Of a DNA stretch of 10,020 nucleotides, positions 4,015 to 10,020 are shown one piece after another (within the stretch, counting starts at the first letter, position 1; every line of letters begins with the position of its first letter). The stretch is taken from positions 171,567 through 181,586 of the forward strand of contig CAZIAQ010000002.1 in assembly GCA_964537755.1 (NCBI GenBank), read 5' to 3'. The DNA comes from an uncultured Cytophagales bacterium (GTDB lineage: Bacteria; Bacteroidota; Bacteroidia; Cytophagales; Bernardetiaceae). Below the pieces are notes generated by a model. The model was not told the DNA's origin and did no database searches. It worked only from the letters and a program-made list of their open reading frames with translations. Position numbers and translations under genes: made by a program.

Positions 4015-5165
4015 AAACATCGCCCCCTATGCGCCCCTTGCTTCGCTTGCTTTTGCATCCCCTGCTCTTCCTCCTGACCTTCATTGCTACGACATTTGCG
4101 GGGGCAGAGTGGATATGGGGGCGGCCTTTTTTTTGGGTTTCACCTGCCCTGACGTGGGCGCACTTTTGGGATGGGCTACATTACTCGATCCCTTTTTTGG
4201 GCATCCTGACCGTACATGAGTTTGGGCATTACTTTGTGGCGCAATACCACCGGCTGCGGGTCAGCTTGCCGTACTACATTCCGCTTTGGTTGGGCTTTTT
4301 ACCACTTTTTGCGGGTGCGCCTTCCATCGGGACAATGGGCGCGTTTATCCGTATCAGGAGCCGGATATGGTCTCGGAAGGTGTATTTTGATGTCGGGATT
4401 GCGGGGCCACTAGCGGGCTTTGTGGTAGCATTGGGTGTGTTGTGGTACGGATTTACTTTTTTGCCGCCCGCCGAGCATATCTTCGAGATTCATCCCGAGT
4501 ATGCCCAGTATGGTCTGGCTTATGCCGATCACGTGTATCAGGATGCCCCCGAGGGTGGCGTTCGGCTGGGCACAAATCTGCTTTTTGAGGCGTTCAAATA
4601 TTGGGTCGCAGATCCGGCATTGCTCCCCAATGATTTCGAGATCATGCACTACCCGTATTTGCTGGCCGGTTATCTGGCTTTGTTTTTTACGGCCCTCAAC
4701 CTACTACCCATCGGCCAACTCGACGGCGGGCATGTCCTTTACGGGCTGGTGGGCTACCGCTGGCATCAGCGTATTGCACGGCTGTTTTTCTTTGTCTTTT
4801 TGGGCTATGCGGGATTGGGGCTGTTTTCGGTATCCGATGTATGGGAATCTCCGACGGGCTTTATCTTGTATGTGGGCTATCTGTACTGGGTATGGGCGCG
4901 TGAGTTTCGGCACTGGCAGGCGGCTTTGGTGGTGGCTCTGGTGCTGGTTTTGTGCCAATGGGGTATTGCGGCTTTGTTTCCAGGCATTGAGGGCTACCAT
5001 GCCTGGCTGTTGTTTGGTTTTTTGCTGGGGCGTGTGGTGGGTATCTCTCATCCGGGGGCAGAGGAGTCTGTTCCGCTTAGCCCGATCAGGAAGGCGTTGG
5101 GTGTGCTGGCTCTGGTAGTCTTTGTGCTTTGCTTTACGCCCCAGCCGCTGCTCATGGTGGAATAA
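4011..5165 (+). CDS. M50 family (site-2 protease-like) integral membrane zinc metalloprotease
   Basis: It has the HExxH zinc motif in TVHEFGHYFVAQYH and the LDGG motif in NLLPIGQLDGGHVLYGL, plus multiple TM helices. A GTG start at 4011 overlaps the upstream TGA (GTGA), which suggests translational coupling. An alternative in-frame ATG lies at 4029. Confidence 0.8.
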   Translation: MKTSPPMRPLLRLLLHPLLFLLTFIATTFAGAEWIWGRPFFWVSPALTWAHFWDGLHYSIPFLGILTVHEFGHYFVAQYHRLRVSLPYYIPLWLGFLPLFAGAPSIGTMGAFIRIRSRIWSRKVYFDVGIAGPLAGFVVALGVLWYGFTFLPPAEHIFEIHPEYAQYGLAYADHVYQDAPEGGVRLGTNLLFEAFKYWVADPALLPNDFEIMHYPYLLAGYLALFFTALNLLPIGQLDGGHVLYGLVGYRWHQRIARLFFFVFLGYAGLGLFSVSDVWESPTGFILYVGYLYWVWAREFRHWQAALVVALVLVLCQWGIAALFPGIEGYHAWLLFGFLLGRVVGISHPGAEESVPLSPIRKALGVLALVVFVLCFTPQPLLMVE

Positions 5166-5170
5166 CCAAA

Positions 5171-5220
5171 CCGCCAAAGCGGCCTACAGACTGTCTTTGG
5201 GGTAAGTCATATTTTTTTTG
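5171..5220 (+). terminator. Possible structured 3' region or weak terminator after the M50 gene
   Basis: CCGCcaaaGCGG is a short stem-loop at 5171-5182. CCAAAG (5174-5179) and CTTTGG (5195-5200) form an outer inverted repeat. It encloses the ACAGaCTGT palindrome (5186-5194), and a T8 run follows at 5212-5219. The geometry is not that of a canonical intrinsic terminator. Confidence 0.2.
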
Positions 5221-5256
5221 TACTTTCGCTTAAACCATTTCTGAAACAATCATGCC

Positions 5257-5469
5257 ATGCAAACAAACGTAGGAAAAATAGACCGACTGATCCGCTACGC
5301 CGTAGCCCTTATCTTGGTGGTCTTGTACGCCAGTGGAGTCGTTGCCGGAACCCTAGGCTGGGTTGTCTTGGTTGGGGGCATTGCCCTGGCCGCCACGGCG
5401 ACGGTTCGCTTTTGTGGGCTATACACCCTGATTGGGGTCAATACCTGCCCGCTCAAAGATCGCCCTTGA
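5257..5469 (+). CDS. DUF2892 (YgaP-like) small inner-membrane protein
   Basis: 70 aa. KIDRLIRYAVALILVV...GWVVLVGGIALAATATVRFCGLYTLIGVNTCP matches the DUF2892 pattern of two TM helices with a conserved C-terminal CPLY..G..TC. Confidence 0.55.
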   Translation: MQTNVGKIDRLIRYAVALILVVLYASGVVAGTLGWVVLVGGIALAATATVRFCGLYTLIGVNTCPLKDRP

Positions 5470-5827
5470 GTTGTTGGAGTTCTTCTTTGAGGCGTATGAT
5501 CTCCTGGCGGCAGTGAATCTCCTGACGTAGGTACGCGATCTGTAAGGCTTCGTAGTGCTGGCGCAAGGTTTCGCGTTCGGAAGCGGCAGGTGTATCATCT
5601 ATGGGGGCATCGGCTTTGTAGTCCCAGAATAAGAGATGGTCGATGCTCACCTGAAAGTATCCCGCCAAACGAATCAAGATGGGCAGGGGCGGTAGGCTTC
5701 TTTGGCTCTCATAAGCCGTGATGGTGTTGCGCTTGAGGTCGAGTATCTGGGCCAGCTGATCCTGGGTTAGGTCGTGTTCCTGGCGCAGCCAACGCAGGTT
5801 ATCTGCCAAATGCAAGGTGCTTTCCAT
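5453..5827 (-). CDS. XRE-family helix-turn-helix transcriptional regulator with a C-terminal coiled coil
   Basis: LRWLRQEHDLTQDQLAQILDLKRNTITAYESQRSLPPLPILIRLAGYFQVSIDHLLF is a Cro/C1-type HTH. The C-terminal heptad-rich stretch LRQHYEALQIAYLRQEI...IIRLKEELQQLKGDL looks like a coiled coil. It starts 5 bp downstream of the SIR2-like gene, so the two are a likely operon. Confidence 0.7.
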   Translation of the reverse strand: MESTLHLADNLRWLRQEHDLTQDQLAQILDLKRNTITAYESQRSLPPLPILIRLAGYFQVSIDHLLFWDYKADAPIDDTPAASERETLRQHYEALQIAYLRQEIHCRQEIIRLKEELQQLKGDL

Positions 5828-5832
5828 GGTGG

Positions 5833-6939
5833 CTATAGCTGCTGTTCTTCAAGTATTTCCTGGAGGGCTTCCCCGAGGCTAAGGACATCTTGTTTGATGC
5901 GGTTGAGTTGGCGTTCGGATTCGTCCTCGTCGATGACCCCATTGGTGATCTTTCGCTGGAGGCGGTTGTAGCGGCTCATCAGCAGGGTGAGCGTCGTGAG
6001 GAGTTCCTCCTCCTGGGGCAGGGGAGCTAGGTAGCTTTCGATTTTGAGCAAAGCCGCCTTCACTTCGTCTTTTCGGATGTATCCCTGGATGATTTCCCAG
6101 GGCGTTTGTACGGTATCGCTCGTCGAGAGTGGGCGGAGCATCCCGCGTTCCTGACAGCGGTCGTAGAGGGTCTGAACAAAATCATCCATGCTTAGGTCAA
6201 TGAAATCAATCCGAAAGTGATCCATACAAAAGTTGAGCGTCTCGACCGAATCCTGGCTATAAGAAGCGTAGCGCAAGAAGTTTCCCGTATGCAAACTCAA
6301 CAAACGCAAGAGCAACTTAACGTACCATTTATCGAACTTAAAGCCCAAAAAAATAAAGTTTTTGGCACTTTGGAGTTGGCTCTCCAGCCCGCGTGGTAGC
6401 TTCCGATCCCCCAGGATGGCGAACAAAAACTCGAAGAGGTCTTCGTGGGTAAAGATCAGCGATTCATCATCCTCAATAGCACCAAAGAGATTGTAGATCA
6501 GGGGATAATCTTGCGTAGGACGTTCGATCGCTTGGGGGTTCTCGTACTTGCGGTAGTAGTCGAAGCGATGGGGCAAGTTGTACTGCTCAAAAGACTGACG
6601 CAGCATCAAGTCCGGCGAAACAGAGATACACAGATGGAAAGGAATTTGGAGAATTTGCTCAAAAAGCGGCGAGGGACTATGCCGAGCATAAAACTGCTGA
6701 ATATCAAAAACGGCCCTCGTTTTGGCCAAAGGGTCGCGAAAGAAAAAAAACTCATCGTCGTTGTAATAACGTACCTTTGCCTGGTTGCTTAGGTCGAGGC
6801 TTTCCAGGAGCGACTGATAAAGCGATAAGCCCTCGGCATTACGCGCCACCTCAGGGCCTAGCATCAACACACAACGCTCGGTACGGATCGTTTCTACAAT
6901 AAAATCCCAGTTTACTTGATCGGGTGGCTTAACGGGCAT
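5833..6939 (-). CDS. Divergent SIR2-like (SIR2_2 / DHS-like NAD-binding Rossmann fold) protein with a C-terminal alpha-helical extension
   Basis: 368 aa. By eye the order of elements matches SIR2_2. There is an N-terminal Gly-loop-like CVLMLGPEVARNAEG. PSPLFEQILQIPFHLCISVSPDLMLRQSF sits where SIR2 has iiTTNYDxllE. PLIYNLFGAIEDDESLIFTHEDLFEFL sits where SIR2 has KLHGS...vlTeeDY. NFIFLGFKFDKWYVKLLLRLL sits where SIR2 has lfiGYSlsD. The catalytic Asn and His positions appear to be S/P and F. The C-terminal roughly 90 aa are helical: LTLLMSRYNRLQRKITNGVIDEDESERQLNRIKQDVLSLGEAL. Confidence 0.5.
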   Translation of the reverse strand: MPVKPPDQVNWDFIVETIRTERCVLMLGPEVARNAEGLSLYQSLLESLDLSNQAKVRYYNDDEFFFFRDPLAKTRAVFDIQQFYARHSPSPLFEQILQIPFHLCISVSPDLMLRQSFEQYNLPHRFDYYRKYENPQAIERPTQDYPLIYNLFGAIEDDESLIFTHEDLFEFLFAILGDRKLPRGLESQLQSAKNFIFLGFKFDKWYVKLLLRLLSLHTGNFLRYASYSQDSVETLNFCMDHFRIDFIDLSMDDFVQTLYDRCQERGMLRPLSTSDTVQTPWEIIQGYIRKDEVKAALLKIESYLAPLPQEEELLTTLTLLMSRYNRLQRKITNGVIDEDESERQLNRIKQDVLSLGEALQEILEEQQL

Positions 6940-7002
6940 ACATGATAATTTGAGGCAAGATAGCGAAAAAAAAAATACGAACCATCAAGCAACTTTTTGC
7001 TC

Positions 7003-7019
7003 TACAAAGCCTCTTTGTA
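7003..7019. promoter_or_regulatory. Perfect 7-bp inverted repeat TACAAAG-cct-CTTTGTA in the divergent intergenic region; candidate operator
   Basis: Read directly from the sequence. It sits 28 bp upstream of the DUF4249 start and about 64 bp upstream of the divergent SIR2-like start. An A10 run lies at 6966-6975. Confidence 0.3.
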
Positions 7020-7860: not shown

Positions 7861-8403
7861 TTATAGGTTAGAGAATGCCGTTACGCGGGCTTGTATCCTC
7901 GGGCGTTCTCCGAGCGGCACCAAAACGATGATGTCCGTTGAGATGGTCTCGCCATCGCGGAGGATAAAACCTGCCTGGACACGCTCGGTGCGCGTGATCG
8001 TTTTTCCTTCGGCGTTGGTATCTTGCCGCTCAAAGGGGACAATAAACTGGTTGGCACGTACTTCGGCACTTTTGGAGGTCATGCGACGACCCGTAGCATT
8101 GATGCAATCAAAGACCCCAAAAACGGATGGATCCATGATACTCCCCCCAAAAGCTCCCTGAAAGCCCGTTCCGGTCAAGACAATTTTTGGGCAACCGCTT
8201 TGGTTAGTCAGATAAACCGTAATTTCGTACCGTGAAAATTCTTCTTTGCCCGCGCTTTGGGTGCGTTCATTGGTTACCGAAAAGCCCACCGACAAACCAT
8301 CCTGATTGGATGATTGGTTCTCTTCCAGGGGGATCACCTGTTGGGCAAGTCCTTGAAAACAAATCCAAAAGAAGGCCATGGCAAATACACACAACTTTTT
8401 CAT
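7861..8403 (-). CDS. Secreted hypothetical protein with a signal peptide
   Basis: 180 aa with signal peptide MKKLCVFAMAFFWICFQGLAQQ and no motif I recognise. It is convergent with the DUF4249 gene, and the two stops are 1 bp apart. Confidence 0.45.
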   Translation of the reverse strand: MKKLCVFAMAFFWICFQGLAQQVIPLEENQSSNQDGLSVGFSVTNERTQSAGKEEFSRYEITVYLTNQSGCPKIVLTGTGFQGAFGGSIMDPSVFGVFDCINATGRRMTSKSAEVRANQFIVPFERQDTNAEGKTITRTERVQAGFILRDGETISTDIIVLVPLGERPRIQARVTAFSNL

Positions 8404-9652: not shown

Positions 9653-9763
9653 CAGCCAAAGATAAGCAATATGGAGCGGTTTTGTGCAAGGGCAGGGGCG
9701 TTTTTGGTTTGCTGTAGTTTTTTAGTATGTTTGCTTTGGGGTGAGAGGTAAATCAAAAAAAAT

Positions 9764-10020
9764 ATGTACATCAGCAAAGTTAAAATCCAAAACTATCGTA
9801 ATTTCTCAAGTTTAGAACTTGATTTACAACCTTTTACACTTATTATTGGTGAAAATAATGTTGGTAAAACTAACTTGCTTAATGCGATTGGGTTGATACT
9901 TAGTCCTGATATTTCCTTTTTCCAAAAAAGAGTGTTGGAAACAGATGACTTTCATTATCAGAATGTTTTGCTTTTTAAAAAGCAAGTAATTACTGAAAAT
10001 GATTTTTCTAAACTCAACTT
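9764..10020 (+). CDS. Partial (N-terminal 85 aa, runs off window) AAA_15/OLD-family-like ATPase. The P-loop N-terminus resembles GajA, AriA and OLD defence ATPases.
   Basis: Translation: MYISKVKIQNYRNFSSLELDLQPFTLIIGENNVGKTNLLNAIGLILSPDISFFQKRVLETDDFHYQN... The pattern I.I.NFR.F....i.f....liiG.NN.GKTNlL.Ai, with Walker A GENNVGKT, is the hallmark N-terminus of OLD/AAA_15/AAA_21 ATPases. The gene is about 28% GC, against about 57% in the rest of the window. The ORF track missed it because there is no stop inside the window. Confidence 0.6.
   Translation, partial: MYISKVKIQNYRNFSSLELDLQPFTLIIGENNVGKTNLLNAIGLILSPDISFFQKRVLETDDFHYQNVLLFKKQVITENDFSKLN

Follow-up and report, generated by a model that had tools for sequence, protein, structure and literature searches.

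Defence sirtuins are usually read as NAD-depleting killers. According to PDB entries and papers, the SIR2 domains of ThsA, Avs5, KomC and FAM118B form filaments in their active state. Avs5 carries its SIR2 NADase effector domain at the N-terminus of a single polypeptide (PMC11897194). In the ThsA-like sirtuin FAM118B, either H206A or N163A abolishes NAD processing (PMC12700824). Effector-associated domains (EADs) are coupled to STAND NTPases in published conflict systems (Kaur, Burroughs, Iyer, Aravind, eLife 2020, PMC7159879), and a later paper names nSTAND1 (Kaur et al., eLife 2021, PMC8195603). We analysed a stretch of 10,020 nucleotides (nt) from an uncultured Cytophagales bacterium (contig CAZIAQ010000002.1, positions 171,567 to 181,586), called the window below, and in it a gene for a SIR2-like protein of 368 amino acids (aa) that ends in an EAD and is followed by a gene for an XRE-family helix-turn-helix (HTH) protein. 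Across the family of this SIR2-like protein, all three NAD-site motifs are swapped: GAG for GP(E/D), TTNYD for S-x-(S/T/N)-P-D and HG for (F/L)G. Relatives have the SIR2-like gene and an nSTAND1 gene, in this order, as a two-gene operon. From these sequence comparisons, we consider it likely, with a probability of roughly 60%, that the SIR2-like domain is an NTPase-coupled assembly adaptor that recruits other effectors, that the window copy acts in trans or is a remnant, and that the HTH protein is a local regulator. The SIR2-like gene has the following features.

5833..6939, minus strand: SIR2-like-EAD11 gene, an intact open reading frame (ORF) including the stop codon, 368 aa
6115..6939, minus strand: SIR2-like Rossmann domain, residues 1-275
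6850..6861, minus strand: L-G-P-E loop, residues 27-30, replacing the canonical G-A-G NAD-binding loop
6610..6627, minus strand: ISVSPD motif, residues 105-110, with S108 at the catalytic Asn position of TTNYD
6481..6495, minus strand: YNLFG motif, residues 149-153, with F152 at the catalytic His position of KLHG
5869..6090, minus strand: EAD11 (effector-associated domain 11, Pfam PF19964), residues 284-357, a helical homotypic adaptor

The protein has the fold of the SIR2_2 and ThsA/DSR-type defence sirtuins and was found to lack their catalytic Asn and His and their GAG loop. Pfam SIR2_2 (PF13289) matched residues 110-220 with an E-value of 1.9e-9, above its gathering score, and structural comparison matched the SIR2 Rossmann fold, with closest structural neighbours that are all active NADases. 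The 100% identical protein at NCBI is named 'MAG: SIR2 family protein [Bernardetiaceae bacterium]', and nothing phage-specific in PHROGs matched the protein. Residues were mapped to SeThsA by a single-sequence phmmer match (PDB 7uxt, E 0.013), in which ISVSPD lies under TTNYD and YNLFG under YKLHG, and by hhalign of the family profile against a SeThsA fragment (residues 118-227, probability 94.7%), which gave the same register. Both alignments concur that S108 replaces the catalytic Asn and that F152 replaces the catalytic His. The family-alignment profile gave no sirtuin matches when run against PDB sequences. At the protein terminus, EAD11 matched with an E-value of 4.1e-13 (49.5 bits vs a gathering score of 26), and the tail helices in the predicted structure span residues 280-289, 293-304, 311-332 and 338-367. 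An earlier note, made from the letters of this DNA alone, had proposed a SIR2 fold, the loss of the canonical NAD-cleaving Asn and His, and a helical tail that resembles adaptor modules, and these results bear out each of these proposals.

A word-indexed search returned 82 homologs of the protein. A HMMER scan of 1.84 billion cluster representatives returned 1,787 relatives at E<=1e-3 and 1,038 at E<=1e-10; the latter number, counted as clusters at 50% identity, is taken as the size of the family, which is mainly found in Bacteroidota. The family alignment contains 222 domains from 220 proteins. Position 152 is F in 145 of these domains, L in 46, M in 9 and other residues in the rest, and it is His in 0/222. 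Since His never occurs at this position, the motif substitutions are a family property and not a matter of chance. Position 108 is S in 115 domains, T in 51 and N in 39. Of the 212 domains aligned at those columns, G28 is present in 211 and P29 in 202, while N150 is kept in 210/222 domains and D110, G153, G199, K204, W205 and Y206 are also nearly invariant. The strong conservation of these residues indicates that a function has been maintained, not that the proteins are decaying.

The genes next to the family were surveyed from both sides. Of 83 SIR2-like genes from GTDB species genomes and homolog contigs, 78 had at least 600 nt of downstream sequence, and in 75 of these 78 relatives (96%) the very next gene, on the same strand, encodes an nSTAND1 STAND NTPase, the median gap being 31 nt. 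Examples with nSTAND1 (PF20703) as the adjacent downstream gene are the 74%-identical homolog P0002, P0005 and P0014 of Rapidithrix thailandica. In the reciprocal search, an nSTAND1 profile found 80 metagenome loci at 25-47% identity, 70 of which had at least 1 kb upstream, and a SIR2 or SIR2-like ORF was detected by hidden Markov model (HMM) right upstream of nSTAND1 in 67/70. In the three remaining loci, L137 had a weak match (E 6e-3) and L138 and L153 had no HMM match; by eye, the latter two contain divergent SIR2-like-TIR ORFs. The link to NTPase-based conflict systems that the earlier note had drawn from the tail is supported. The nSTAND1 partners have an intact Walker A (GKSGLGKSS) and Walker B (DQFEE). 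Their C-terminal region is variable and contains either WD40/TPR or a transmembrane segment with a coiled coil. No EAD11 was detectable in the nSTAND1 partner proteins, and PADLOC v2 gave them no strong match and none to a STAND/Avs model.

Several other observations were made on the nSTAND1 partners. The C-termini in L003 and L005 consist of a transmembrane segment and ~150 aa of coiled coil, and the partner in L004 (Rapidithrix) has WD40 and TPR arrays and is 1,711 aa in total. An N-terminal R-Y-P-G-x-x-P-F motif precedes Walker A invariantly in 15/15 aligned partners (e.g. L003, 6107-6150) and is a candidate docking site for the SIR2 or SIR2-like partner. One Chitinophagaceae contig (L042) carries two same-strand SIR2-like and nSTAND1 pairs, at 4178-6916 and 10001-12381, that lie ~3 kb apart and differ in tail type.

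Among the nSTAND1-anchored loci, the motifs of the SIR2 partner form a graded series. The distant pairs are canonical (PFLGAGA, TTNYD, HLHG), an intermediate group has GPE, TTTFD and YHLFG, and the window's clade has GPE, S-x-S/T/N-P-D and YNLFG. The canonical motifs were taken as ancestral because they are common to ThsA. Relatives with His at position 152 contain the canonical GAG loop; among the 18 partners with this His, N108 was found in 16/16, the GAG loop in 12/13 and an extra terminal domain in 0/18. In comparison, 132/134 His-less partners have an extra terminal domain of at least 50 aa (Fisher p=2e-21 over both locus sets, uncorrected for phylogeny). The extra domains on the SIR2-like proteins, as identified by Pfam, are listed below.

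C-terminal EAD11: the majority of His-less partners
C-terminal TIR_2: L129, L161, L142, L124, P0103, P0206
N-terminal TIR: P0093
N-terminal CHAT: L150, L158
N-terminal Trypsin_2: L156
N-terminal EAD7: L133
C-terminal EAD7: P0076, P0078, P0079

The canonical control, L160, contained SIR2_2 alone in Pfam. In a neighbour-joining tree, which carries no support values, the His-less sequences are not one clade. Each of the isolated His losses among or near canonical sequences (L156; L150 with L158; L133) occurs together with a fused effector or adaptor, which suggests that such events were replicated.

EAD11 is also carried by separate genes. These were found beside the SIR2like-EAD11 and nSTAND1 genes in 12 related loci, as follows.

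Separate EAD11-TIR genes: L016, L023, L070, L075, L078
Separate CHAT-EAD11 gene: L061
Separate genes with EAD11 and an unknown domain: L009 (duplicated as L004), L043, L044, L059, L062, L072

In L032 and L053, the SIR2-like gene has a stand-alone TIR gene as its immediate upstream neighbour. One protein, P0084 (1,158 aa), is a single-chain fusion with the order nSTAND1-SIR2like-EAD11-SIR2like-EAD11. A search of a 5.8-billion-protein database with the EAD11 alignment gave nothing at E<=1e-3. A second chain, P0085 (645 aa), has the order SIR2like-EAD11-SIR2like, and both P0084 and P0085 are Rosetta-stone fusions in which the His-less SIR2-like domains are duplicated.

The simplest reading of these patterns would be that the SIR2 domain stays constant and coupled to the NTPase and that killing was taken over by other effectors (TIR, CHAT or trypsin, or ones recruited via an EAD). 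The SIR2 domain would originally have been the NADase effector of nSTAND1, a state that the distant pairs, with canonical motifs and nothing attached, would retain. It would then have turned into a non-catalytic, or at least non-canonical, platform that is still coupled to the NTPase. Effectors would be either fused to it directly (TIR, CHAT, trypsin) or tethered via EAD7/EAD11, and the tethered EAD-tagged effectors could be encoded nearby or elsewhere. Once an invader is sensed, nSTAND1 would oligomerise and nucleate an assembly of the SIR2-like protein, by analogy with SIR2 filaments, and the attached or recruited effector would be activated by induced proximity. We give about even odds to a more specific history within the lineage of two-gene SIR2 and nSTAND1 immune operons. 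In it, each fusion or tethering of another effector (TIR, caspase-like CHAT, trypsin or one recruited via an EAD) would have gone along with a loss of the catalytic His from the SIR2 NADase, repeatedly so, and the Asn and GAG loop would have been lost later. The enzyme would in this way have become a pseudoenzyme adaptor that connects a bacterial NTPase resembling nucleotide-binding leucine-rich repeat (NLR) proteins to interchangeable death effectors. A His loss that tracks extra domains is the pattern expected if SIR2 catalysis became dispensable. The earlier note had considered an inactive sensor or decoy, which comes near to the adaptor reading favoured here.

Another explanation, which is possible but which we regard as doubtful, is that the His-less SIR2-like protein is still the killing enzyme. 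It would use a non-canonical site (e.g. N150, D110 and S106/S108) on NAD+ or a related nucleotide, EAD11 would merely polymerise it after nSTAND1 activation, and the window copy would be an orphan effector. A conserved alternative residue set does occupy the canonical pocket positions, Asn is found at position 108 in 39/222 domains, the closest structural neighbours are all active NADases and most loci have no other recognisable effector. However, all three canonical NAD-site motifs are altered together, ThsA-like sirtuins lose their activity when the equivalent His or Asn is mutated (PMC12700824), and the loss of His tracks an extra effector or adaptor domain with hardly an exception (132/134 vs 0/18).

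Some of the data weigh against an adaptor. The invariant N150, D110, S160 and D167 fit a ligand pocket as well as an interface, and even without the His a SIR2 domain could use these residues to bind or cleave NAD or a different nucleotide. About 65 of the 78 loci consist of SIR2like-EAD11 and nSTAND1 only, with no EAD11-tagged effector within 10 kb, and thus an adaptor would require effectors encoded elsewhere. The association between His loss and domain gain is uncorrected for phylogeny, the neighbour-joining tree is without support values, and the lengths of the extra domains were taken from stop-to-stop ORFs. Also, the spacing of 5 nt between the SIR2-like and HTH genes is tight and leaves room for a functional link between the two.

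The window encodes neither nSTAND1 nor an EAD11 effector within its 10 kb and, therefore, its SIR2-like gene was considered an orphan component. EAD-coupled conflict systems have a core NTPase in the operon, which is the case for the family (75/78) and not for the window. A second EAD11 ORF was looked for in the 10 kb and none was found. A tblastn search for a remnant of nSTAND1 in the window gave only E>0.7, and a nSTAND1 pseudogene remnant was ruled out on this basis. Further orphans are L046, L054, L060 and probably L006. In L006, which contains a 58% homolog, a convergent RiboL-PSP-type HEPN gene fragment (4476-4769, minus strand) replaces nSTAND1 and the contig then ends, so that this orphan has another kind of defence-type gene beside it.

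The window ORF is intact and has kept all family-invariant residues. When it was compared to the 74%-identical homolog, the nonsynonymous divergence (dN) was 0.185, the synonymous divergence (dS) was saturated and dN/dS was ~0.03. Together, these results point to purifying selection for most of the gene's history. Most likely, the partners of the window copy are encoded at other places in the genome and it works with them in trans, as the EAD principle, with its dispersed EAD-tagged gene copies, allows (PMC7159879). It is less likely to be a recent remnant. We also consider it unlikely that the copy is a non-functional remnant, that is, a drifting SIR2-like gene left after a rearrangement that removed the NTPase and brought in an unrelated HTH gene. 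This could account for the missing nSTAND1, which 96% of relatives have, for the housekeeping flanks with no other defence genes in 10 kb and for a genomic context unlike that of the 74% homolog. It does not agree well with an intact ORF that retains every family-invariant residue, or with a dN/dS well below 1 vs the closest homolog, although dS is saturated and a recent relaxation is possible. The existence of the other orphans and the dispersed EAD-tagged genes that the EAD principle expressly allows (PMC7159879) also argue against it.

The HTH gene and the features related to it are the following.

5453..5827, minus strand: XRE-family HTH gene, 124 aa, in the slot where relatives encode nSTAND1
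5633..5797, minus strand: HTH_3 DNA-binding domain (Pfam), residues 11-65 of the 124-aa protein
5459..5584, minus strand: predicted single long helix, residues 82-123 of the 124-aa protein, from an AlphaFold2 single-sequence model
7003..7019, strand-neutral: perfect palindrome TACAAAG-N3-CTTTGTA, a candidate operator

Pfam HTH_3/XRE matched the 124-aa protein with an E-value of 6.2e-13 (49 bits vs a gathering score of 23), and an RstR-like match in NCBIfam was below cutoff. The AlphaFold2 model is of low confidence, with a predicted local distance difference test score of 77-92 in the last blocks and 59 overall, and its helix at residues 82-123 is a possible dimerisation coiled coil. On the same strand, 5 nt separate the TAG stop codon of the SIR2-like gene from the HTH start codon (ATG), suggesting that the genes are probably co-transcribed. 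Both ORFs agree with the earlier note. The HTH tail was tested as a cryptic EAD11 and this was ruled out (BLASTP E 0.65, hhalign probability 0.1%).

Among 5.8 billion proteins, the HTH protein had no detectable relative except itself. We fetched 165 related loci around SIR2-like or nSTAND1 relatives, of which L001 and L002 are copies of the window sequence, and HTH relatives were absent from the other 163 (phmmer --max, E<=1). Conserved co-occurrence across genomes, as expected of a type II toxin-antitoxin or regulator-toxin pair, was not found for the SIR2-like and HTH genes. The earlier note had suggested looking for co-occurrence with the HTH or with STAND NTPases, and the survey of homologs gave co-occurrence with the STAND NTPase (75/78) and none with the HTH. 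It had also raised the two genes as one module, be it a new defence system or a regulator-toxin pair, and the 163 loci do not support this. The apparent SIR2 and HTH 'system' of the window is no new defence module. The HTH protein is not a conserved component, antitoxin or sensor of the SIR2-like system, the XRE-HTH pairing is a lineage-specific juxtaposition, and the protein is most plausibly a local transcription regulator.

It is highly improbable, in our judgement, that the SIR2-like gene and the XRE-HTH gene by themselves make up a module for defence or abortive infection, or a toxin-regulator module, with the HTH protein controlling or neutralising the SIR2-like protein. The same strand, the 5-nt gap and probable co-transcription would be consistent with such a module, as would the upstream palindrome and the resemblance of the HTH domain (only) to phage-type repressors, CapH and C proteins. 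Nevertheless, the pairing is confined to one sequence lineage (0/163 other loci with such an HTH), the HTH protein has no homolog but itself and no EAD11 with which to dock on the SIR2-like protein, the latter is missing the catalytic residues that one would expect in a toxin, and the closest homolog (74% identical) has nSTAND1 at that position.

The palindrome at 7003-7019 lies within the intergenic region of 107 nt between the SIR2-like gene and a divergent DUF4249 gene, at 64-80 nt upstream of the start codon of the former, and is the sole match in the window at <=2 mismatches. It is weak evidence for an operator of the HTH protein since it was spotted post hoc. A scan restricted to sigma-70-type promoters gave no match, and Bacteroidota promoters diverge from the sigma-70 consensus.

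The remaining genes of the window, as identified by Pfam, encode a CHU_C type IX secretion system protein, a COX3-like protein, a DUF697 protein, a methyltransferase and an M50 peptidase. Further genes encode a YgaP-like transmembrane protein, the DUF4249 protein, an FMN reductase and an esterase. All of these neighbours are housekeeping types, and no defence genes besides the SIR2-like gene were found among them in the 10-kb window with Pfam. Signatures of insertion were looked for at the locus and there was no tRNA, no Rfam match and no convincing flanking repeats. The convergent YgaP-like gene (5257-5469, plus strand) and the HTH gene overlap by 17 nt at their 3' ends (5453-5469), so there is no room for a terminator between them. 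The GC content is ~0.47 at 6250-7000, which covers the region upstream of the SIR2-like gene and its N-terminal half, and rises to 0.53-0.55 over the remaining, C-terminal half, the HTH gene and the flanks. This contrast across the SIR2-like gene may reflect different origins for the two halves of the locus. Two short direct-repeat pairs, offset by 335-338 nt, connect the HTH gene (5570-5703) with the EAD11-coding region (5908-6038); they are probably due to chance because the protein-level similarity is not significant. Neither Pfam nor PHROGs matched a 180-aa ORF at 7861-8403 (minus strand), which has a signal-peptide-like N-terminus. The GC content is down to 0.39 at the window's right end (9700-10020).

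More than 1,000 protein clusters, mostly from Bacteroidota, keep the SIR2 fold and the STAND NTPase partner and have given up the catalytic residues; in their place, another effector or an adaptor domain is present almost throughout. If these SIR2-like domains are adaptors, bacteria would offer a clear case of an immune effector converted to a pseudoenzyme scaffold. It would show effector swapping in NLR-like systems, and it would parallel the Death-domain adaptor logic of animal immunity, with the window gene as a free-standing adaptor copy. The annotation 'SIR2 family protein' would then be no proof of NADase activity. In the literature, for which our coverage was incomplete, we found no description of an obligate SIR2/nSTAND1 pairing, none of a clade-wide loss of NAD-site motifs and none of a coupling of this loss to the gain of an effector or adaptor. 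Nothing relevant was found there on naturally inactive SIR2 or SIR2-TIR in STAND systems.

When the locus is compared with known systems, the HTH gene is like the XRE regulators (CapH, the C proteins of restriction-modification systems and RstR-type repressors) in having weak HTH_3 profile matches and an operon with a defence-type gene. In contrast to these regulators, its matches all fall short of the family cutoffs and are limited to the HTH part, there is no CapP-like partner protease, and the window HTH has no conserved association with SIR2-like genes. The SIR2-like protein shares the SIR2_2-type fold with DSR2, SIR2-HerA and the KomC sirtuins. Unlike them, it has no large C-terminal sensor, HerA neighbour or KomA/KomB context, and the catalytic motifs are not conserved; where SIR2-HerA, DSR1 and DSR2 have a HerA neighbour or a sensor of >600 aa, the window has housekeeping neighbours and a protein of 368 aa. 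It also differs from Thoeris ThsA (SIR2-SLOG; PDB 6lhx, 7uxt, 8btp) in having no SLOG/Macro sensor domain in Pfam and in missing the catalytic Asn and His. The partner in relatives is an NTPase and not ThsB, no TIR gene was found among the window neighbours scanned with Pfam, and the PADLOC match to ThsA has just E 0.038. Assignments to Thoeris, DSR, Lamassu and Avs were rejected because the PADLOC matches of the SIR2-like protein are weak (best LmuA, E 4.6e-4).

Avs5 / AVAST type 5 (SIR2-STAND-sensor; PDB 9nc9, 9jap) is the closest experimentally studied relative in logic. Avs5 combines SIR2, STAND and a C-terminal sensor in one chain, whereas the window protein has 368 aa and no NTPase. Here, the SIR2-like protein and the NTPase are separate genes, the NTPase belongs to another clade (PADLOC gave it no Avs match, and none to the SIR2-like protein either), and the SIR2-like protein is without the Asn, His and GAG loop and carries EAD11. 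The EAD/STAND systems resemble the present one in the small helical EAD at a protein terminus and, in relatives, in the nSTAND1 gene of the same operon. In the published systems, the EAD is on the core NTPase and on the effectors, but here nSTAND1 is without a detectable EAD11, the EAD is carried by the constant, His-less SIR2-like protein, and the window copy is without an NTPase. The domain families and the EAD principle have already been published, and the pairing of a His-less SIR2-like protein with nSTAND1 is a variant of them.

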